A program made the translations under genes and the position numbers. Under the pieces are notes generated by a model, which was given only the letters and a program-made list of their open reading frames with translations, was not told the DNA's origin and made no database searches. A stretch of 64,000 nt of DNA from a virus (taxonomy: Duplodnaviria; Heunggongvirae; Uroviricota; Caudoviricetes), in the IMG/VR virus record IMGVR_UViG_2681813421_000002, positions 22,586 to 86,585 of that record. The stretch is one strand, 5' to 3'. Of the stretch, positions 11,455-51,319 are shown in pieces (the stretch's first letter is position 1; every line of letters begins with the position of its first letter).

Positions 11455-11700
11455 GCAGCCTCCTTTTGCTAATTTAAGGAGCTACCGCGTGAGGTTCCAA
11501 TCTCAATGGCGGTAGCACTGACTGGGTTGGAACTACCGGCGCAAAAGGGAACCGGCCTGCCTTTCGGCAGCCCAGCCAGCACTACCATTGATCTCTGAGC
11601 TAAACGCTACGTATGGCTGTGCGATGGCATGACACAAGAAAAGACGCTTTCGGCGTCTGTGTCGCCTTTTGCATTATCCGGGGTTCCAATCCCGGCACCC
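11455..11700 (-). ncRNA. c4: c4-like antisense RNA region (immI-type) with repeated target elements
   Basis: Two hairpins whose loops carry GGTTCCAATC (plus-strand reading, near 11490-11520 and 11678-11695) and an intervening complementary element GGTTGGAACTACC; layout matches P1 c4 with a1/b1 and a2/b2 sites ahead of icd. Confidence 0.4.
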
Positions 11701-11763
11701 GTTTTTCTAAGGTGCCGTAGAAATATACCCCACGATAATGCCAGGGCGCAACAGTCAGTATTT

Positions 11764-21258: not shown

Positions 21259-22661
21259 TCACTATTACCAAAGAACGCCTGCTGACAATCCAGCAGTGGC
21301 GCGAAACATACGGACCTGGTAGCAACGTTGTACTGCCAGCAGAAGAAGCGGAAGAACTGGCACGAATTGCTCTGGCATCGCTGGAAGCAAAACCAGTTGC
21401 TTATATTTTCAAACATCCGGCCGGGAAATTATTCTGGGCTTTAACGGATGAAAGCAATAAAGAGCAAGCGGACGTTATTCCTGTTTATGCTGCCGCGCCT
21501 GCGTCGGTTGTGCCGGATAATGCATCAGAGCCTCTTGCTTATGCTTACAAAGAGCTTACGCCTGAGATTATGCGCAACCATTTAGCTGTATTCGAGCGAT
21601 ATGGAATAGCCCCAAACGATAGCTCTACCACAATTCAGGCACTGCGAATCGCGCTGGATGGTATAGAGCGGAGCGACGCCATGCTTCAGTCCGGAAACTT
21701 TCGGGAAAACAAGAATTCGTCAACCAATAATTTTCGGGAAATCGCGGAAACGTCAACCAACTATCCGGTAATTCCTAGTGAGCTGTTGTCCGCAATCCTG
21801 AAGGTTGCCAAGATTCGTGCCGATTTCGATGATTTTGACGGTGACAGGCGAGGTATCGATGATTGTCTGGATGAGGCTGAGCAAGAGCTTATCGTTACCA
21901 TTAACAAATATGCCAGTCAGTTGGCAGCAGAACCGATAGCGACTAATGACGTTCGAGAGCAAACAGCCGTTCCGCCAGTTCCGGTAATGCAGGCTGATGT
22001 CGCGCAGGCAATTGAAAAACTCAAACGGAAATTAGTGGAATGCAATCGCTATAACTACTGTGCAGATGCAGTTAAAGGCGTAGAGGATGCCTGCCGTGCT
22101 GTTAGCTATAGCCAAGCCGACAATCAGCCAGCATCTGGCAACCAGGCTGCCGAATCCAATCGCGGTAATGAGTGGACCGGCAATCCTGATATTGATAACG
22201 CCATCATCATGCTCGATCGCATAGATACGCTGGAAAGTTGCGATGATGACCGTATTGAGGCTGTTAAGGCTGTTTTGCGTAGACTGGCTGGCAACTATCC
22301 GGATATTCCGGATAGTTCGGTGCCAGCGCCAGGAAAGGGCGTCACCGGTGAACGTATCCGCATTAAGCCGCATGTTTATCGCGAACTGGTTAACCGTCTC
22401 CACGATACAGCGATCAAGTGTGCTGGCACCCAGCAATTACGAGAAAGAATTAGCCGTGTTTTGGGCGACGTTATTACACCAGATCATCATAAACAAGCCG
22501 AGAAAAGTGACCTGGAAAGGTGTCACCTTGAGGCGGCATTAAACATTAAGCCGGGGCATACGCTTGGCATTATTGATGCACTATTGGTTCATAAGATGGC
22601 CAGGGCTTTATTGCCGCTGGTGGCTGAAAAGCATGAGGTGGACCATGCCAACGAAAGCTGA
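21255..22661 (+). CDS. Hypothetical protein with internal tandem repeat and C-terminal motif shared with 13113-13724
   Basis: 468 aa; repeated FRENK/FREIAE segment; YRELVNRLHD...GTQQLRER. Confidence 0.5.
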   Translation: MITITKERLLTIQQWRETYGPGSNVVLPAEEAEELARIALASLEAKPVAYIFKHPAGKLFWALTDESNKEQADVIPVYAAAPASVVPDNASEPLAYAYKELTPEIMRNHLAVFERYGIAPNDSSTTIQALRIALDGIERSDAMLQSGNFRENKNSSTNNFREIAETSTNYPVIPSELLSAILKVAKIRADFDDFDGDRRGIDDCLDEAEQELIVTINKYASQLAAEPIATNDVREQTAVPPVPVMQADVAQAIEKLKRKLVECNRYNYCADAVKGVEDACRAVSYSQADNQPASGNQAAESNRGNEWTGNPDIDNAIIMLDRIDTLESCDDDRIEAVKAVLRRLAGNYPDIPDSSVPAPGKGVTGERIRIKPHVYRELVNRLHDTAIKCAGTQQLRERISRVLGDVITPDHHKQAEKSDLERCHLEAALNIKPGHTLGIIDALLVHKMARALLPLVAEKHEVDHANES

Positions 22662-29779: not shown

Positions 29780-29845
29780 TGACAAAAAATCACAGTTCGA
29801 TCCTTTACTCACCCTGTTATTCGACATAAATTTGTCATAGTAATT

Positions 29846-29864
29846 TTATGTTAGAAAACTAAAT
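29846..29864 (-). promoter_or_regulatory. Operator-like motif (ATTTAGTTTTCTAACATAAA on minus strand)
   Basis: 13 bp upstream of the start codon of 29877-30914. Confidence 0.5.
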
Positions 29865-29876
29865 CGAGTAGGAATA

Positions 29877-30914
29877 ATGAGTAAGAAGTCGATCGAGAAA
29901 GAGTACAAACGGTTCCTGCAAACCGCTGAACGGTGGAAAGAGCTGGTGGTCGCAAACTCTGTTTTCCATGATACCAGTTATGCTGGCGAGGAATTCCGCC
30001 ATGTTGCATTAACGCATGACCAAAACATATTAGAAGAAGCTGAAAAATGTCTTGCTGAATGGAAAGCCTTCGTTGACATGTGCCGCGATGCCGACGGCAA
30101 AGCGTCGAACATTGTTGAGTCTGTATATTCTCCGATCCCATTCATCATTGAGGACACCAATCAAAGCACGCATGTCGTTGTGCAAAGCGCTACAACAACA
30201 CGTACATTTACACGTGAACAATTGCTAAAAAAATACGACAAAATCATAAAGAAAAGCCTGAAAAATAGGGTTTTTTCTCAAATCGTAGGTGCTCTTGAAG
30301 AAGAACAGCGCTTCTTTGAAGCTGAGCCTGAAGGCGAGATCTACCGGGCGCGTAAAGAGGCATATACAGATGTTGTGCTGACAACAAACATCGAAGGCAG
30401 CAATGCCCTTTCTCGCTTTAGAGTTGGCGCACATGGCGCATTGGTTTTCGCAAGACTACCGAAGACAACGATCCCCGTTGTCAATAATGTTGGTGAACGC
30501 CGGAGCATTACAATTTATTCTGGCGTCGAATCGGTACCATGCAGCCTTCTCGGCGATTTTAACTTATATCGTGTTCGTGACCTGGAAAAACACCAGCCAA
30601 GCTACGTTGCGAAGTCGTACATCTTAAGGAACATCGATATTCGCAATGAAAGCCTTAAGCAGAAATCCGCTAAGATGCTGGAGGATGCCGATCCGGCTAT
30701 TCGCCATATCATTGAACGTAAGATACGTACATCACGTGAAGCAATGGCAAGGTTGGATAAAATGGATCTGGAATTGTTAGACGTAATGATGGCCTCTGGA
30801 GACGACCTGACCGGCATTAAACTGAATGAAGCTCGTAAAAAATACGGCAAAGCAATCGAAGAACGTTACGGATACACATTCCCCCAAACGCAGTACGCCG
30901 CGAAGCTCTGGTAA
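29877..30914 (+). CDS. Candidate C1-type immunity repressor (positional analog of P1 c1)
   Basis: 345 aa; lies between lox/cre and pacB, convergent with pacB, flanked upstream by two operator-like motifs; I do not recognise the protein sequence itself. Confidence 0.4.
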   Translation: MSKKSIEKEYKRFLQTAERWKELVVANSVFHDTSYAGEEFRHVALTHDQNILEEAEKCLAEWKAFVDMCRDADGKASNIVESVYSPIPFIIEDTNQSTHVVVQSATTTRTFTREQLLKKYDKIIKKSLKNRVFSQIVGALEEEQRFFEAEPEGEIYRARKEAYTDVVLTTNIEGSNALSRFRVGAHGALVFARLPKTTIPVVNNVGERRSITIYSGVESVPCSLLGDFNLYRVRDLEKHQPSYVAKSYILRNIDIRNESLKQKSAKMLEDADPAIRHIIERKIRTSREAMARLDKMDLELLDVMMASGDDLTGIKLNEARKKYGKAIEERYGYTFPQTQYAAKLW

Positions 30915-34204: not shown

Positions 34205-34280
34205 TAATCCCCCAGGCAGGAAATGACCGAGGGGATGATAATGAGAATGTTATTTCTGTATAGACTGGCAAAAAGTTGGT

Positions 34281-34315
34281 TATATTAGAAAATTAATTCC
34301 ATTCATCTAACACTA
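34281..34315. promoter_or_regulatory. Operator-like dyad (TATTAGAAAATTAATT ... TCATCTAACACTA)
   Basis: Two core motifs in inverted orientation upstream of the lpa-like gene. Confidence 0.5.
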
Positions 34316-35836: not shown

Positions 35837-36664
35837 TTATTTCACCGGAACAAACGGAACAGCGGCATTACTGGTCATATACTGCGGTAATGTACCGTTC
35901 CATTTGTTGATCGCTTCCAACTCCATAACACCGGGGTTCTGGCGCAGAGCTTCACCACGTAAACGAATGGCATCAGCTTCGGCCTGGGCTTTTGTGCGAA
36001 TAGCATCAGCCTGTCCGGCAGCTTCCGCGCGCAGCATGTTGGCCTCTGCTTCACGTTGTTTGACCTCTTGCTCGCGTTGCAGGGTTTTTTGGTTTGCCGT
36101 AACTTTGGCGTTAATACTGTCAATAACTGTTGGCGGATATTCTGGCTTACCTACATAAGAGAGGCTCATCACCTGAATGCCGATTGGCGTCATTTCTTCC
36201 TGAATGTCTTTAAGGGCTGCATCAAGCAATTCAGATTTGCCACCGTCGATAAATTTGTCGGTGGTCATTTTGCTGGCTAACCGGTTCAGAGCATCTGCAA
36301 CCTTCTGGCGTAGATCGGTATCAGTAATATCATCTACACCTTTGCGATAGGTCTGAAATACCGTTGTGACTTTTGCTGGATCAACCTTGTAGGCTACGCC
36401 GATGTGGTAACCAATGGTTGTTCCGTCGCTCATCTGGAAGCTGAACGGCTCATCGTATGTCTTCATTTGCTTAAAGGTCGGGAAGATATAAACTTCAGTA
36501 TTCAAGCCTGTCCAGTAGCGACCAACACCAACTACTTCACCGATACCTTTATCATCCCCCAGCTTATTTACTTTGATCCCTACGTTACCTGGCTCTACCC
36601 GATCGCATCCGGTCAGACATAAAGAACCCAAAATAATCGCTGCACTAATCAACGTTTTTTTCAT
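35837..36664 (-). CDS. plp: Prohibitin-like SPFH/band-7 lipoprotein (Plp)
   Basis: 275 aa; lipoprotein signal LISAAIILGSLCLTGC, SPFH-like core and Ala/Glu-rich coiled-coil tail. Confidence 0.75.
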   Translation of the reverse strand: MKKTLISAAIILGSLCLTGCDRVEPGNVGIKVNKLGDDKGIGEVVGVGRYWTGLNTEVYIFPTFKQMKTYDEPFSFQMSDGTTIGYHIGVAYKVDPAKVTTVFQTYRKGVDDITDTDLRQKVADALNRLASKMTTDKFIDGGKSELLDAALKDIQEEMTPIGIQVMSLSYVGKPEYPPTVIDSINAKVTANQKTLQREQEVKQREAEANMLRAEAAGQADAIRTKAQAEADAIRLRGEALRQNPGVMELEAINKWNGTLPQYMTSNAAVPFVPVK

Positions 36665-36881
36665 TAATTAATTTCCTGGTTTTTTCACGAAAAAAGACTA
36701 CTGCGAAAGCCGGGTAAATGAGCGCGAGAAGGACTCCCAACAATACAAGTATTGTGCTGTTAGATGAGATCATATTTGGCAAAAGCCAAACATACAGAAC
36801 CAGTGACACAATCAAACAGAGGACGGCATAAATATATAACCGCACCCATAGCGTTCGACATTTGTTCGGATTGTTCTGCAT
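36645..36881 (-). CDS. upl: Small membrane protein upstream of plp (Upl-like)
   Basis: 78 aa with two hydrophobic helices; overlaps plp start. Confidence 0.5.
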   Translation of the reverse strand: MQNNPNKCRTLWVRLYIYAVLCLIVSLVLYVWLLPNMISSNSTILVLLGVLLALIYPAFAVVFFREKTRKLINEKNVD

Positions 36882-37144
36882 CCTCTCACTCCATTATTTA
36901 ACGAATAAAAAAGCTGCGGTGCCGGGTACCTCCCGGTGTCCTTTGGCTGGTTATCCACCGTGGACGGGGAAACAAGGAGAAATGAATGGACTGATATAAC
37001 CATTTCCCCGCGTGCGCTTAGCCGCATTCACCGCAATGGTAAGAGCACTTGGCTGGCTGGGCGGCGATGACGCCTGTACGCATTTGGTGATCCGGTTCTG
37101 CTTCCGGCATTCGCTTAATTAGCCAAATACTCTTAACGTTGCAC

Positions 37145-37231
37145 TGGCGGAGAGTAATGGAATCGAACCATCATCGCTTGCGCAATGGGACGGTTTTCAA
37201 GACCGCTTGAGCACCATGCTCCCTACTCTCC
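37145..37231 (-). tRNA. Type II tRNA with long variable arm, anticodon UGA (Ser-like)
   Basis: 87 nt; acceptor GGAGAGT/ACTCTCC, anticodon stem GCGGT/ACCGT with loop CUUGAAA, T-arm GATGG-TTCGATT-CCATT, G73 and CCA. Confidence 0.5.
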
Positions 37232-37365: not shown

Positions 37366-37457
37366 ACAATGTTGAGAACACTGGTTGTCACGCTGCAACG
37401 CAACATTTATTCATAGATTGGGATATGACCCCGTTACGCCAGTGTTCTCAACGTTGT
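37366..37457. repeat. 19-bp inverted repeat (18/19 match) separated by 54 bp
   Basis: ACAATGTTGAGAACACTGG ... CCAGTGTTCTCAACGTTGT in the tRNA-cluster intergenic region. Confidence 0.55.
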
Positions 37458-37685: not shown

Positions 37686-37761
37686 TGGTGCCGGTTAACG
37701 GACTCGAACCGCTGACATCCTGCTTACAAGGCAGGCGCTCTACCAACTGAGCTAAACCGGC
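37686..37761 (-). tRNA. tRNA-Thr (anticodon UGU)
   Basis: 76 nt; GCCGGTT acceptor, GCTCAGTTGGTAGAGC D-arm, loop CUUGUAA, T-arm GGTTCGAGTCC, CCA. Confidence 0.8.
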
Positions 37762-37763
37762 AT

Positions 37764-37840
37764 TGGCGATGGTGGGTGGATTCGAACCACCGACCGACAG
37801 CTTAGAAGGCTGCTGCTCTATCCTACTGAGCTACACCATC
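37764..37840 (-). tRNA. tRNA-Arg (anticodon UCU)
   Basis: 77 nt; loop CUUCUAA, T-arm GGTGGTTCGAATCCACC, CCA end. Confidence 0.75.
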
Positions 37841-38300
37841 ACTTGCCGGGTACGTCTCCGGCGAGGGCTTCCACCTCCGTATGCTTTTCGGCGCACCGCG
37901 CCCTGGCTGCAATTCGGTAACAGGGGATGCACAACCCTGGCTTCCAGCGTGATTAGCGCCTTCAGCATGACGGGATATACCCGTAGTAGGATGTTATCCC
38001 AGAAAGCCATTAATCAATGGCTGTTACGCGGGAGGGACGTAACAGGTAAGGGCGCTGACCAGAAAGACCTGACCCTTCTCATTCATCTGGTTAATCACAC
38101 CAGCACCCTTGCCTGTTATGCCTCCCCGTTCCCTAATACACAGACGGGGACACTCTGCGGTCGATTTTTTGACGGGGGACGACTCATACCCCGTGGCGTC
38201 AGGCTTCTTAGGCCGCTACCATCATCAGATCATCGTTTGCATTTACTTTAATGGTCGGGTTCTAAACCGCCGCAAAGTCGCTAACCATGACGAAAACCCT

Positions 38301-38324
38301 AAAAAAGCCCACCCGAAGATGGGC
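38301..38324 (-). terminator. Rho-independent terminator (minus strand)
   Basis: GCCCA-loop-TGGGC followed on minus strand by TTTTTT. Confidence 0.45.
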
Positions 38325-38344
38325 AAATACGCTACATCTCACAC

Positions 38345-38422
38345 AAGAAAGAAGCCGACTGCCTGAGCTGGATTCACTTTCAAATGCCCGCTGAAAGGGA
38401 TCACAAGTCGGCTTCTTTCTTG
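38345..38422. repeat. Perfect 17-bp inverted repeat with 45-nt spacer
   Basis: CAAGAAAGAAGCCGACT ... AGTCGGCTTCTTTCTTG. Confidence 0.55.
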
Positions 38423-38638
38423 ATGCGGCACTCTCTCCGCCCGTCACCGCTCTGTCTCGGTTGTCGCGTTTGCCACGCCAGCCGTAACGAGGTTTAAAGT
38501 CTTTGCACGTTTCCATCACTCGACTGCCGTCTGTGGCTGTTCGTTGCAGCGGGGGTGCCTCCCCCTGGGGATATCCCCGGCCTTACCCCATTCTTTCAAG
38601 ACACAATGCAAGGCCACATCCGCATAGGTGCATTACTG

Positions 38639-38703
38639 CAACATTAAGGAGACTCAGGGCAAAAGGTAACCGCCACAAAAATCCCTATGCCTCCTTAATG
38701 TTG
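38639..38703. repeat. Perfect 13-bp inverted repeat with 39-nt spacer containing an inner stem
   Basis: CAACATTAAGGAG ... CTCCTTAATGTTG. Confidence 0.55.
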
Positions 38704-38905
38704 AAGACGTGCATTGATGATTAGATGCAGCATGTACCGTTACTCTCTGCCGGACCATCATCAATGAACACCTTAAAAAGACCTTCCGTGGCTCAACATG
38801 TATTGTCGTTTACTCCGCAAAGTGCTCTCTCTGAAACCACTTTCCGCACTAAACCTGCTGAACTTTGGCCTGCACGGTGCCAAAGCGTGCTCTTGCGTTA
38901 CTACA

Positions 38906-38921
38906 CTTTTCTAACACTTTA
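38906..38921 (+). promoter_or_regulatory. Operator-like motif (TTTTCTAACACTTTAA)
   Basis: Core TTTCTAACAC inside the structured noncoding region. Confidence 0.4.
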
Positions 38922-39055
38922 ATTTGTTAAATGCTGGTGGGCAAACAATAACCAATAAGTGACTATCAAGCCCAGCAAGCGAAACGTGGGTACCGCCCAC
39001 CAGCAAGGAAAATTCTATGTTAAGTTACCTTCACAATCAATACATTCGAATTGTG

Positions 39056-39076
39056 AATTTAGTTTTCTAACATATT
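39056..39076 (+). promoter_or_regulatory. Operator-like motif (AATTTAGTTTTCTAACATATT)
   Basis: Overlaps the 3-prime end of gene 39075-40283; placed to control minus-strand transcription into the 38.3-39.0 kb noncoding region. Confidence 0.45.
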
Positions 39077-40283
39077 ATTTCCCGTAAAGATCTTCTACAC
39101 CCCCATTCTTCTTATCCCATTCGTTCGCCCATACCCGGCAAGCGTCAATGATTTCCTGACGACGATCTCCTTGCATGAACGGAATGCTTTCATGGAAACA
39201 GCTTGGAATGCAGGCCACACTGAATACAGTATCAAACTCCGTCTGCTTGATTGCCTCCAGCGTCTCCGGACGCATTTTTAATTCATCGATTGGCGCATCC
39301 TTAGAGTCCATAATCCGGCGATATAAGCGCGGAAAATCCGTCTCCAGGTACGCCATAATTTTATCTGCGAGACATTCGTCTATGTCGGTATTCCAGTCCT
39401 TTTCGAAGCCCGGCAGGCGATAGTAAAGCGGCGTTCCCCATACCGATGGGATCACATCCATCGTTAACAGGCGATTAGTTCTGATTTGTTGATGGTAATT
39501 AGCCGTCAGCAGTGCTTCGCCACGCTGCCCAGTTTCCGCAACCAGGCCGTGCGGATACTCATGGATGTAGGCAATGGCATCCCTTCCATCATACATAAGT
39601 GGAAATGTCTCTGGTCTTTGTCCCATGCCACAAGCACGGTTCAGATCGTGACCAAGCTGTGAGCACTCTCGCTTTAATGTTTCGATAATGCTCTGCGCTG
39701 TAGCCAACTTTTTACGCAGTGTGACGCCTTCGCCTTGATAATCAATGCATTGCTGATTGAGCTTGGTTAAACGCTCTTTTAGTTCCCGGCGCTCTCTTTT
39801 CAGCGTGCGGTTATCCTTCTCCGCAACATCCAGCCGCTTTGTCAGGCTTGGCGGATAGTCTTTTTTGTAACGGTTCAAATCGGCTTCGGCAGATTTACGC
39901 AGTGTATTTGCCTGTTCAAGACGCGCTTCCAGATTGCCGATCTCATTACGCATATTCGCGGCAAATTGATTAACTGCATCACCCAGGCTTTCAACTGTCG
40001 CTGATACGCCTGTGACTTGTGAAAAACGGATCAAGCCATCATTAACGGCTTGTTGGTATTCCTCAAACTGATCCACCAGCTTATTGTAATCAACTGCCCC
40101 ATCATCAAGCAGCTTGTTGATTTCCGCCACCAGGTTATCTGTAGTGGCAATGACACTCTCGTGCAGTCGCTTTGACAGGTCATCACCCGGATTCCGTTTC
40201 TGTATAAGAGCGATTTGTGTGCGCAGCGTTTCAATTGCTGTCGAGATAATTTCCAGATTAGAAGTATCAGTGTGTTGACTCAT
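39075..40283 (-). CDS. Hypothetical protein with N-terminal coiled-coil, operator-flanked
   Basis: 402 aa; long heptad-like N-terminal half, globular C-terminal half. Confidence 0.5.
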   Translation of the reverse strand: MSQHTDTSNLEIISTAIETLRTQIALIQKRNPGDDLSKRLHESVIATTDNLVAEINKLLDDGAVDYNKLVDQFEEYQQAVNDGLIRFSQVTGVSATVESLGDAVNQFAANMRNEIGNLEARLEQANTLRKSAEADLNRYKKDYPPSLTKRLDVAEKDNRTLKRERRELKERLTKLNQQCIDYQGEGVTLRKKLATAQSIIETLKRECSQLGHDLNRACGMGQRPETFPLMYDGRDAIAYIHEYPHGLVAETGQRGEALLTANYHQQIRTNRLLTMDVIPSVWGTPLYYRLPGFEKDWNTDIDECLADKIMAYLETDFPRLYRRIMDSKDAPIDELKMRPETLEAIKQTEFDTVFSVACIPSCFHESIPFMQGDRRQEIIDACRVWANEWDKKNGGVEDLYGK

Positions 40284-50929: not shown

Positions 50930-51200
50930 TAACAACCTGCGCCCCGCTGCTAAACGGGTGGCAGGACGTGACGGGGTTAGCAGACTGGCACGAATGAAAC
51001 CAGCAGGCCGAAGCCTCCCCATCACGCCCCACCATAATTCGGGCGTAACGTGGTTTTACGGACACAAAAAACCGCAATATCGGATATCTGCGGTTGTCCG
51101 CATTCGTATTCAGGCTGCTAAACCCGGTCGCAGAATTTGCTACGACGACATGAATATAAGCCTGAAAACATGGAAGATCAACTAAAAATTTCAGCAATGG
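50930..51200 (-). ncRNA. Second c4-like antisense RNA region with a different target motif
   Basis: Repeated GCTGCTAAAC elements (near 50935 and 51113) and a partly complementary GGTTAGCAG element between them. Confidence 0.35.
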
Positions 51201-51248: not shown

Positions 51249-51270
51249 AAATTAATTTTCTAACACAAAT
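51249..51270 (+). promoter_or_regulatory. Operator-like motif (AAATTAATTTTCTAACACAAAT)
   Basis: Upstream of the second c4/icd/ant-like module. Confidence 0.5.
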
Positions 51271-51319
51271 TATTGAGCGAGCATTTTCCGATCATTGGGA
51301 TGTTTTGTAGACGCACAGG

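Follow-up and report, generated by a model that had tools for sequence, protein, structure and literature searches.

A putative C1-controlled, structured leader RNA of a tRNA-bearing early operon in a D6-like phage-plasmid

Gene order, operators and terminator of the interval

The window analyzed in this study is a stretch of 64,000 nucleotides (nt) from a virus of the class Caudoviricetes (IMG/VR record IMGVR_UViG_2681813421_000002, positions 22,586 to 86,585), and the subject is its interval 38301-39076, 776 bp located between a pmgS-like gene and a cluster of transfer RNA (tRNA) genes. We consider this interval probably to be a structured, C1-controlled untranslated leader RNA of a tRNA-bearing early operon, which would be the D6 counterpart of the P1 ban leader and would act at the RNA level. 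The interval with its surroundings (1.6 kb) was 98.2% identical to Escherichia phage D6, which belongs to the P1 family and lives as a plasmid prophage, and the window is, as judged from its sequence, a D6-like phage-plasmid of the same family. The D6 record has no annotation between the tRNA genes and the pmgS-like gene.

In the P1 annotation, the syntenic order opens with the P1ban promoter and Oban (formerly Op72ab), a bivalent C1 operator; a 'dicF-like region', a pair of tRNA genes, the tci genes, one more tRNA gene and finally ban come next. All of these elements are on the strand equivalent to the minus strand of the window, and therefore the interval reads from right to left. The match of P1, P7, SJ46 and their relatives to this region was limited to 37815-38327, with about 90% identity. 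The terminator and 460 nt past it are common to the window and P1, and the distance between promoter and terminator is about 640 nt longer in the D6 lineage than in P1. The DnaB-type helicase gene ban is not annotated in D6 within about 5 kb downstream, where the tci genes, two open reading frames (ORFs), lpa and pacA are found instead; the corresponding downstream ORFs of the window are those of a Band 7 protein, small ORFs and Lpa. At 35837-36881 on the minus strand, a Band 7/SPFH lipoprotein-like gene of 275 codons and a 78-codon ORF replace tciA and tciB of D6, a cargo swap within the early unit. The first tRNA gene past the terminator was typed as Arg(UCU) by ARAGORN, and the D6 and P1 records label its homologues tRNA-Asn.

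An earlier reading made from the letters alone (the sequence-only reading) had noticed two operator-like motifs here, and they proved to be real. The motif TTTTCTAACA was found twice, at 38907-38924 and 39063-39080, and its core TGTTAGAAA occurred 12 times in the window compared with 0.67 expected, a number that none of 100 shuffles reached. The extended consensus of the motif is ATRTGTTAGAAAAYTAATTT. A position-specific scoring matrix (PSSM) built on the 12 motif sites found 14 sites in the window at a threshold of 12. One of the operator-type sites (29843-29865) is just upstream of the C1-like repressor gene, which encodes a D6-type homologue of the P1 C1 repressor (29877-30914). Another (51249-51271) is about 90 nt upstream of a c4-a1b1/C4 antisense RNA unit detected with Rfam (50954-51159), and a third (34277-34299) is between the Lpa gene and its upstream neighbor. 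With the sites of the interval, these are the same four places as Op99, Op51, Op86 and Op72 known from the P1 literature, of which Oban alone was confirmed from the P1 annotation. Compared by eye against the Oban sequence, 11 of the 17 positions of the motif agreed with the consensus of P1 C1 operators. The assignment of the TGTTAGAAA-type motifs as putative C1 operators is well supported.

A minus-strand promoter scan of 37700-39300 gave a single sigma-70 promoter, located next to the pmgS-like gene (Table 1). Both of its hexamers were conserved in 8 of 8 aligned relatives, and the -10 hexamer is TAAAAT in the Shigella dysenteriae plasmid. Transcription is predicted to start at about 39005. 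The operator that abuts the -35 hexamer, O2, is degenerate in the window; it is intact and inverted in the relatives L003, L004 and L007, which gives a two-operator arrangement as in P1 Oban.

The left end of the interval is an intrinsic terminator on the minus strand, GCCCATCTTCGGGTGGGC and then a run of six T. An alignment that included P1 and relatives retaining the body of its 'dicF-like region', together with the P1 annotation, placed this terminator at the 3' end of that region. The body of the region (about 105 nt) is precisely missing from the window, at 38328-38343, and from D6. It is present in the L003, L004 and L007 group (2381-2501 in L003), in L005 and in S. dysenteriae plasmids, and in P1 it is at L002 4481-4582. 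The sequence-only reading had let the region end at this terminator. The terminator was borne out, but it is not simply the end of the unit, as tRNA genes for which the scan found no promoter of their own lie beyond it. Since P1 has the same terminator between the ban promoter and ban, and the tRNA genes here are without their own promoter, read-through past the terminator appears to be part of the design.

Table 1. Coordinates of the features in and around the interval 38301-39076 (SD, Shine-Dalgarno sequence)
Feature	Position in the window	Strand	Basis or remark
pmgS-like gene	39075-40283	minus	ORF; borders the interval
Operator O1	39056-39078	minus	PSSM 33.2, joint best of 14 sites; directly follows the stop codon of the pmgS-like gene; -35 hexamer about 16 nt further downstream
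Degenerate operator O2	39041-39053	plus	abuts the -35 hexamer; 5/9 core positions kept; PSSM below threshold 12
Sigma-70 promoter (predicted)	39040-39012	minus	promoter scan; -35 TTGATT (39040-39035), 17-nt spacer, -10 TAGAAT (39017-39012)
5'-terminal clamp hairpin	38932-39005	minus	11-bp stem, 52-nt variable loop; starts at the predicted first transcribed base
11-bp perfect inverted repeat	38932-38942/38995-39005		loop 52
Operator O3	38900-38922	minus	PSSM 20.8; about 85-105 nt downstream of the predicted start; TGTTAGAAA core invariant in all relatives
Predicted hairpin GUUUAGUGCGGAAAGUG...CACUUUGCGGAGUAAAC	38808-38854	minus	RNAalifold helices 5 and 6; one-sided changes keep pairing via G-U
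Hairpin, 10-bp perfect core extended to 15 pairs	38701-38777	minus	RNAalifold helix 9
10-bp perfect inverted repeat	38712-38721/38757-38766		loop 35; not in the sequence-only reading
SD hairpin	38639-38703	minus	5' arm CAACAUUAAGGAG(G) with perfect SD; 3' arm CUCCUUAAUGUUG; 39-nt loop variable
13-bp perfect inverted repeat	38639-38651/38691-38703		loop 39
Candidate small ORF MWRLPFALSLLNVAVMHLCGCGLALCLERMG	38678-38583	minus	31 codons, TTG start, TAA at 38583; behind the perfect SD in the 13-bp stem
Nearly invariant core	38536-38650	minus	about 110 nt, four abutting hairpins; column variability 0-0.035, against 0.05-0.19 in the flanks
Core hairpin	38579-38615	minus	part of the nearly invariant core
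Core hairpin GGGGAUAUCCCC	38567-38578	minus	part of the nearly invariant core
Core hairpin GGGGGAGGCACCCCC	38551-38565	minus	part of the nearly invariant core
Core hairpin	38536-38550	minus	part of the nearly invariant core
Module M	38440-38532	minus	93 nt; covariance model 86.5 bits
Hairpin S1 of module M	38498-38525	minus	
Single-stranded run UUAAACCUCGUUACGG of module M		minus	
Hairpin B of module M	38466-38478	minus	
Hairpin C of module M	38447-38460	minus	
17-bp-stem hairpin	38344-38422	minus	45-nt loop enclosing a 6-bp hairpin; three compensated stem pairs
17-bp perfect inverted repeat	38344-38360/38406-38422		loop 45
Intrinsic terminator GCCCAUCUUCGGGUGGGC + U6	38301-38324	minus	terminator scan; stem 38324-38307, T-run 38306-38301
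tRNA-Arg(UCU)	37764-37840	minus	ARAGORN
tRNA-Thr	37686-37761	minus	ARAGORN
tRNA-Ser	37145-37231	minus	ARAGORN

Inverted repeats, conservation and coding potential

The interval had first drawn attention by its long perfect inverted repeats, and all features listed for it by the sequence-only reading were present in place or within 1 nt. The 17-bp and 13-bp repeats and the G/C hairpins of 38551-38578 were confirmed in the sequence, the latter being the small palindromes GGGGATATCCCC (38567-38578) and GGGGG..CCCCC (38551-38565). The repeat given as 10 bp at 38933-39004 was also present, with a stem of 11 bp rather than 10. The interval contained 4 perfect inverted repeats with arms of 10 bp or more and loops of at most 80 nt, compared with a mean of 0.037 in 1000 dinucleotide shuffles of the 776 bp. 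None of the shuffles reached 4 repeats and none had an arm of 13 bp or longer, and just 2 of 633 sliding windows of the 64-kb sequence contained 4 such repeats. A further long perfect inverted repeat in the style of the leader hairpins (14-bp arms, 54-nt loop) was seen at 37371-37452, between the tRNA-Ser and tRNA-Thr genes.

The 776 bp were present in 120 PLSDB plasmids (97 Escherichia, 16 Salmonella and 6 Shigella) with 82-99.7% identity, and in 101 of 5426 complete E. coli genomes, nearly always plasmid-borne; RefSeq had no annotated feature over them in any of these 101 genomes. In an alignment of 25 distinct leaders, 5-19% of the columns were variable across most of the length, and 0-3.5% in 38525-38650. 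The leader of the S. dysenteriae plasmid is 65% identical overall and lacks 38425-38545, yet its core block is unchanged. The nearly invariant core was located in D6-like contigs only, and a scan of the genome contigs of species representatives for it gave 0 matches. In the metagenome contig L085, unrelated sequence follows the GGGGGAGGCACCCC hairpin, starting in the middle of the second G/C hairpin, which suggests an insertion or rearrangement breakpoint.

Antisense partners of the leader were also considered. Complementarity of at least 13 nt between the interval and the rest of the window was limited to one 14-nt match, which is in a variable loop and within chance expectation. Targeting of the leader by a C4 antisense RNA was rejected as a candidate: the duplex energies were within background, and whole-molecule duplex folding is unsuited as a test. 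The window has two separate C4 antisense RNA genes on the minus strand according to Rfam (11505-11715 and 50954-51159), one with isrK adjoining and one with a c4-a1b1 target unit, and the element thus seems to carry two immI-type antisense control regions.

RNAalifold, run on 22 leaders, gave a consensus that is a chain of local hairpins. Pair changes were counted on 21 distinct leaders, in which 97.9% of the cells were paired. Changes on both sides affected 15 pairs; column shuffles gave 7.7 ± 1.3 and slid partners 2-8, and 15 was reached in none of 500 shuffles. The tool's own caveat on related sequences applies to this statistic. Ten pairs in the stem of the clamp hairpin were invariant in the 21 distinct sequences and its loop was variable. 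In helix 9, 12 of the 15 pairs were invariant, and the other 3 varied on one side with the pair kept. Compensatory changes from A-U to G-C were found in the SD hairpin in 6 sequences. Its 3' arm CUCCUUAAUGUUG copies the anti-SD of the 16S ribosomal RNA 3' end. The 17-bp stem had two kinds of compensatory change, A-U to U-A (6 sequences) and G-C to A-U (likewise 6). One-sided stem changes were overwhelmingly to or from G-U. The sole substitutions in the two invariant G/C palindromes were C to U on the minus strand, which give G-U, while the plus strand would have A-C. These G-U-compatible substitutions fit a minus-strand RNA.

The sequence-only reading had pointed to Rfam for a family, and the covariance search returned no described family at or near its gathering score. 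At permissive thresholds, the interval, the surrounding 6 kb, a lambda-like leader and six related loci gave tRNAs and sub-threshold chance matches only. The best matches within the interval with Rfam 15 at E ≤10 were STnc240, with 25 bits (gathering score 55), and MicA, with 22 bits (gathering score 41); hairpin and terminator account for both. DicF (RF00039) went unmatched in 38250-39100 at E ≤10, and at E ≤0.01 also in P1 and in those relatives where the dicF-like body is retained.

The statement of the sequence-only reading that the region has no convincing ORF was essentially right. No ORF of 31-85 codons in the interval had a match in Pfam, NCBIfam or PHROGs, and RefSeq annotates none; the caveat is the 31-codon ORF at 38583-38678. 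The largest candidate, an 85-codon ORF on the minus strand (38262-38519) with an N-like arginine-rich start, was rejected: it has TGA at codon 5 in many relatives, it is deleted in the S. dysenteriae plasmids, and it meets a stop after 11 codons in lambda-like relatives.

The 31-codon ORF opens an alternative reading, in which the payload is a hydrophobic membrane peptide of 31-33 residues (38678-38583), kil-, toxin- or holin-like, made only after induction, and the RNA structure serves translational control. Its models would be the mRNAs of type I toxins or the lambda N leader with its control by RNase III. We regard this reading as unlikely, although it has several points in its favor. The sequence UAAGGAGG is a perfect 8-nt SD that is invariant across all leaders and locked in the 13-bp stem, and the TTG start is 7 nt from it in the L003 group and 11 nt in the window. 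The ORF stayed in frame and hydrophobic in four versions of the loop (WRLPFALSLL, WRVSFALSLL, GFPLILLTLSLL and LAFLLTLSLL). Its substitutions were few, four of them synonymous (CGG>CGA, CTG>CTA, GCA>GCG and TGT>TGC) and three conservative. However, hydrophobic codons are expected from U-rich loops anyway, and natural variants break the ORF in several ways. Inversion of the loop truncates it to 16 codons without an SD in three independent samples (L009, L046 and L097), its stop codon is lost in L093, and a +G frameshift extends it to 63 residues in the whole L004 group. The sole in-frame start in L026 is a GTG 15 nt from the SD, so that the spacing between SD and start ranges over 7-15 nt. The near-invariance of the leader extends about 50 nt past the stop codon, and therefore coding is not its cause. 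A codon-degenerate metagenome scan found nucleotide-identical D6-like copies only, a tblastn search of plasmids with the peptide found nothing beyond D6-like plasmids, and no promoter for a plus-strand antitoxin RNA was found within 38500-38800 by the promoter scan. Clear coding constraint on the small ORF is not shown by the substitutions and variants.

Module M and other shared noncoding segments

The part 38432-38541 of the leader matched a Pantoea phage-plasmid and a Klebsiella prophage-type phage. It contains a 93-nt unit, module M, made of the hairpin S1, a single-stranded run and the hairpins B and C (Table 1). Its 20-nt core GCTGGCGTGGCANACGCGAC was found in 66 IMG/VR contigs, 24 of which also carried the D6 core block, and 77 loci were sorted by sequence context into 32 D6-like, 35 lambda-like and 10 others. 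A covariance model built on 14 diverse copies found no second copy in the window nor in 50 loci searched, which means exactly one per locus. The most widespread part is the 5' half, in which UUAAAACUCGUUAGG comes after a hairpin whose 21-nt loop is conserved; a scan of the species-representative contigs found this half in Phytobacter ursingii and Mixta mediterraneensis only. The 3' half with hairpins B and C is exchangeable and is replaced by unrelated sequence in mEp390-type leaders. Four of the five pairs of hairpin C change on both sides, and the hairpin that precedes module M keeps its place with four different stems.

In lambda-like prophages, module M is located in a noncoding gap of 650-850 nt between a cI/LexA-type repressor gene and the early-left genes. 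In phage mEp390 it is about 315 nt downstream of a TTGACA-N18-TACATT promoter, which itself follows the terminator of the repressor gene. Four lambda-like leaders (L022, L027, L044 and L050) have a tRNA-Arg(UCU) 200-700 nt downstream of module M, the same species as the first tRNA past the terminator in the window. A mini-ORF in the lambda-like versions of the module (MMQTAKVVKTR) was rejected: D6-like and lambda-like copies differ at the first and second positions of its codons, and its stop codon is not conserved.

Other noncoding segments of this kind were seen in and around the leaders. A hairpin module of 60-80 nt, CAGACGATATCTGAGTGG...GAGCCGGTGGAAGCCCGGC, is present in lambda-like leaders (L012 3151-3232) and is absent from the window. 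It is 88-96% identical in unrelated phages, many of them of Klebsiella and Escherichia; N4-like Gamaleyavirus, Klebsiella phages of about 60 kb and Shigella phage DS8 are among them, and it directly follows a tRNA gene in ECBP1 (L079 2501-2560). The segment 38122-38285, which lies between terminator and tRNA genes and is shared with P1, is 72% identical to 2251-2412 of L079 (the N4-like Gamaleyavirus ECBP1), just upstream of a pseudo-tRNA. Both gave weak matches to the permuted transfer-messenger RNA model (23 and 33 bits, respectively; gathering score 47), which hints at a tRNA-like fold. The noncoding segment 35538-35639, between tRNA-Met and the next ORF, is 76-82% like two segments of the mEp390 PL leader, which again indicates that the operon gathers noncoding modules of the kind seen in lambda-like early leaders. 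None of these three segments belongs to an Rfam family. A recurrent sub-threshold Rfam match to STnc100 (30-41 bits; gathering score 47) was found downstream of tRNA-Ser in the same operon, at 36915-37035 on the minus strand, and also at L002 3174-3293, L003 1215-1352 and L063 5127-5254, in the last case directly after module M.

The leader is a mosaic of mobile RNA modules. Noncoding modules of 60-100 nt recur in P1-like, lambda-like and N4-like phages with 72-95% identity; the region that carries them is in every case untranslated or tRNA-bearing, and they point to an uncatalogued pool of exchangeable phage RNA parts.

For module M, perhaps together with the invariant core, a specific function can be proposed: a cis-acting element of processive antitermination. 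The nascent RNA would modify RNA polymerase in the manner of HK022 put, which acts on the zinc-binding domain of the beta-prime subunit, or would gather Nus factors like the boxA of nut and rrn, and polymerase would then pass the dicF-type terminator and resist Rho along the long untranslated transcript with its tRNAs. Module M would then represent an undescribed class of cis-acting leader RNA in D6-type phage-plasmids and in N-less lambda-like prophages of Enterobacterales, making polymerase resistant to intrinsic and Rho-dependent termination on long early transcripts that are untranslated and carry tRNAs. We hold the proposed function to be improbable, and the existence of such a class equally so. 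If true, phages would possess in module M another answer to the problem solved by HK022 put, unrelated to it in sequence and passed as a mobile cassette from one phage family to unrelated ones.

The placement of the module agrees with this proposal. It follows repressor-controlled early promoters at a short distance in untranslated leaders of both D6-like elements and lambda-like prophages, and downstream of it in the window come a strong terminator and then the promoter-less tRNA genes; in P1, the ban gene is separated from its promoter by the same terminator. The lambda-like relatives have no evident N-like protein, their first downstream ORF being without an arginine-rich N-terminus. At 10 of 11 positions, GACUUUAAACC of module M agrees with GUCUUUAAACC of putL, a stretch that takes in the triplex strand and the 3' strand of the stem I duplex; the coordinates of putL were verified against its published numbering. 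A layout like that of boxA and boxB is also present, with CUCGUUA, a spacer of 6-7 nt and a 4-bp hairpin with a 5-nt loop. However, these short put and boxA/boxB resemblances are within the chance range, and the local score of module M against the PL-nun interval of HK022 was 22 compared with 19.4 ± 1.9 for shuffles, which is not significant. Each genome segment has one copy of the module, and neither the window nor the searched loci yielded a second (PR-side) copy. A candidate pseudoknot pairing, GAUGA/UCGUU, does not hold in mEp390 and L028, hairpins B and C are swapped for unrelated sequence in the mEp390-type leaders, and P1 reads through the same terminator without module M.

Reading of the interval and comparison with known systems

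Slightly less probable than antitermination is that the segment has no function of its own and is a recombination mosaic of hitch-hiking noncoding fragments at a place in an early operon that tolerates them, with palindromes kept by template switching or gene conversion. Such a mosaic would account for the absence of the 640-nt segment from P1, P7 and SJ46, the modular composition with sharp breakpoints (e.g. on either side of the GCTGGCGTGGCANACGCGAC core), the deletion of the dicF-like body in the window without apparent harm and the loop inversions, which reveal palindrome dynamics at the DNA level. It does not fit the 110-nt core, with 0-3.5% variable columns against 5-19% in the flanks of the same genomes and no change in the 65%-identical S. 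dysenteriae leader. Nor does it fit the stems kept by compensatory changes with different sequences (hairpin C, the four stems of the hairpin before S1 and the 17-bp stem), or the roughly 80% identity with which module M has been kept in the noncoding DNA of different phage families.

The sequence-only reading had also offered an origin or other cis-acting DNA site. A DNA-level site for replication, incompatibility or recombination is very improbable here. Dense palindromes could form cruciforms, and transcription from a promoter under repressor control might in principle switch on an origin. However, the 776 bp contain no DnaA-box-like 9-mers (with at most 1 mismatch), direct repeats of the iteron type did not go beyond two-copy matches expected by chance, no stretch is AT-rich (GC 43-60%) and GATC occurs once (window mean 3.6 per kb). 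The rox recombination site of D6 is elsewhere, at the numbering origin of the record beside the genes of a cre-like recombinase and a C1-like repressor, and the G-U-compatible substitutions favor RNA.

The other suggestion, a repressor-controlled structured RNA, fits the conserved promoter flanked by putative C1-type operators, the predicted minus-strand terminator, the synteny with P1 ban and the compensatory changes. It is this suggestion that we develop into the C1-controlled leader RNA. Several observations weigh against such a leader. The segment 38328-39010 is missing from P1, P7 and SJ46, and therefore it appears to be an accessory of the D6 lineage and not essential for the P1 family. 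The sequence-only reading had named absence from related genomes as telling against it; the three phages do lack the segment, and about 120 D6-type plasmids retain it. The D6 lineage offers little sequence diversity, and what there is clusters by descent; the majority of helices show no variation, and the pair-change statistics carry the caveat mentioned above. A strand-neutral count over Watson-Crick-only stems gave 14 G-U and 11 A-C (p = 0.69). Because this difference is not significant, a minus-strand RNA is not proven against maintenance of the palindromes at the DNA level. The folds do not separate the strands either, with -268 kcal/mol and z = -5.2 for the minus strand and z = -6.3 for the plus strand, both far better than shuffles. 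The 39-nt loop 38652-38690 is inverted between the repeat arms in L009 (the JS316 plasmid), L046 and L097, once with an extra 9-nt deletion, and therefore DNA-level palindrome dynamics also operate. The strength of C1 repression is uncertain, because O1 is located upstream of the -35 hexamer and does not cover the promoter, and because O2 is degenerate here. No module gains a function from homology, with nothing in Rfam at E ≤10 to supply one. Finally, we infer the transcript start, termination efficiency, processing and stability from the letters of the DNA.

The leader RNA would work as follows. Upon inactivation of C1, RNA polymerase would start at about 39005, and the first transcribed bases would form the clamp hairpin. 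A highly structured RNA would then be made, untranslated or with at most the one 31-codon ORF translated. Part of the transcription would end at the terminator (38324-38301) and yield a leader RNA of about 0.7 kb, and the remainder would read through into the tRNA-Arg, tRNA-Thr and tRNA-Ser genes. The long perfect stems are plausible sites of RNase III/E processing, as for DicF, which is released by RNase III/E processing from the leader of the dicB operon of the Qin prophage. We think that the modules act in cis on elongation, termination or stability, or in trans as processed small RNAs. A role in trans in the manner of DicF and a role in cis are equally open; a role in elongation or termination is attractive because the modules follow early promoters in two unrelated phage types and a terminator comes next here.

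The kind of element is already known, as a P1-family early-operon leader with operators, small-RNA units and tRNAs. New are the 640-nt insert of the D6 lineage, the invariant core and module M, which are not described in Rfam, in the D6 and RefSeq annotations or in the literature searched; a text search of the literature on the ban operon, Op72 or dicF in P1 gave nothing relevant. D6-type phage-plasmids are common in E. coli, Salmonella and Shigella, their early regulation has hitherto been read by analogy with P1 only, and the leader is the most conserved noncoding stretch of the D6-type early unit. If the modules control read-through into the tRNA genes or yield small RNAs, they would be a missing piece of the lytic switch or of the action on the host. 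Should none of this hold, terminator read-through in a P1-family operon could still be studied in this region as a clean, ready-made test case.

Compared with known systems, the interval shares with type I toxin mRNAs (of the hok, tisB and zorO type) and with the lambda N leader a short hydrophobic ORF, an SD buried in a long perfect hairpin and a structured untranslated RNA. Unlike in these systems, no antisense promoter was detected within 38500-38800, the ORF is disrupted or extended in natural variants and no homologues of it were found beyond D6-like elements.

Module M resembles HK022 put and lambda nut in lying in untranslated RNA shortly after a repressor-controlled early promoter and in combining hairpins with a conserved single-stranded run. 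It differs from put in being present as a single copy instead of two and in having no significant sequence similarity. From a lambda-type nut it differs in having CUCGUUA where the boxA core is CUCUUUA, and in hairpin B, whose 4-bp stem carries a loop GGCA(A/U/C); in most members the loop is GGCAU, which does not fit a GNRA-like pentaloop. Moreover, no arginine-rich N-like ORF accompanies it, the arginine-rich reading of 38262-38519 being broken by stops in relatives.

The species 1 and 2 RNAs of T4 are likewise conserved, structured non-tRNA segments co-transcribed with phage tRNA genes. The noncoding DNA of the operon studied here is shared in part with the tRNA region of ECBP1, and lambda-like leaders bearing module M sometimes carry tRNA-Arg(UCU). 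Unlike the T4 RNAs, which are stable and interspersed with the tRNA genes, the segment in the window is upstream of the tRNAs, which stand behind a terminator, and a relationship in sequence to the T4 RNAs is not expected.

The likeness to DicF and the leader of the dicB operon is that of a small RNA unit inside the long leader of a repressor-controlled prophage operon, ending at an intrinsic terminator; the terminator in the window is the one that the annotators of P1 gave to the 'dicF-like region'. Neither the window nor the P1 region scores as DicF in Rfam, and of the unit the window keeps the terminator only.

With regard to the P1 ban operon leader, the window differs in the roughly 640 nt of lineage-specific structured sequence between promoter and terminator, in the deleted dicF-like body and in operators of the TGTTAGAAA type, which match the P1 consensus partially as given above. 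It also differs in its upstream neighbor, which is pmgS here and dmt in P1, and in the ban helicase gene, for which the D6 record has no annotation over the 5 kb downstream. The two leaders have in common the slot and the strand, a sigma-70 promoter under putative C1-type operators, an untranslated leader, the same terminator with the 460-nt segment and a homologous tRNA pair, and the L003 group, near relatives of the window, keeps both the two inverted promoter operators and the dicF-like body.

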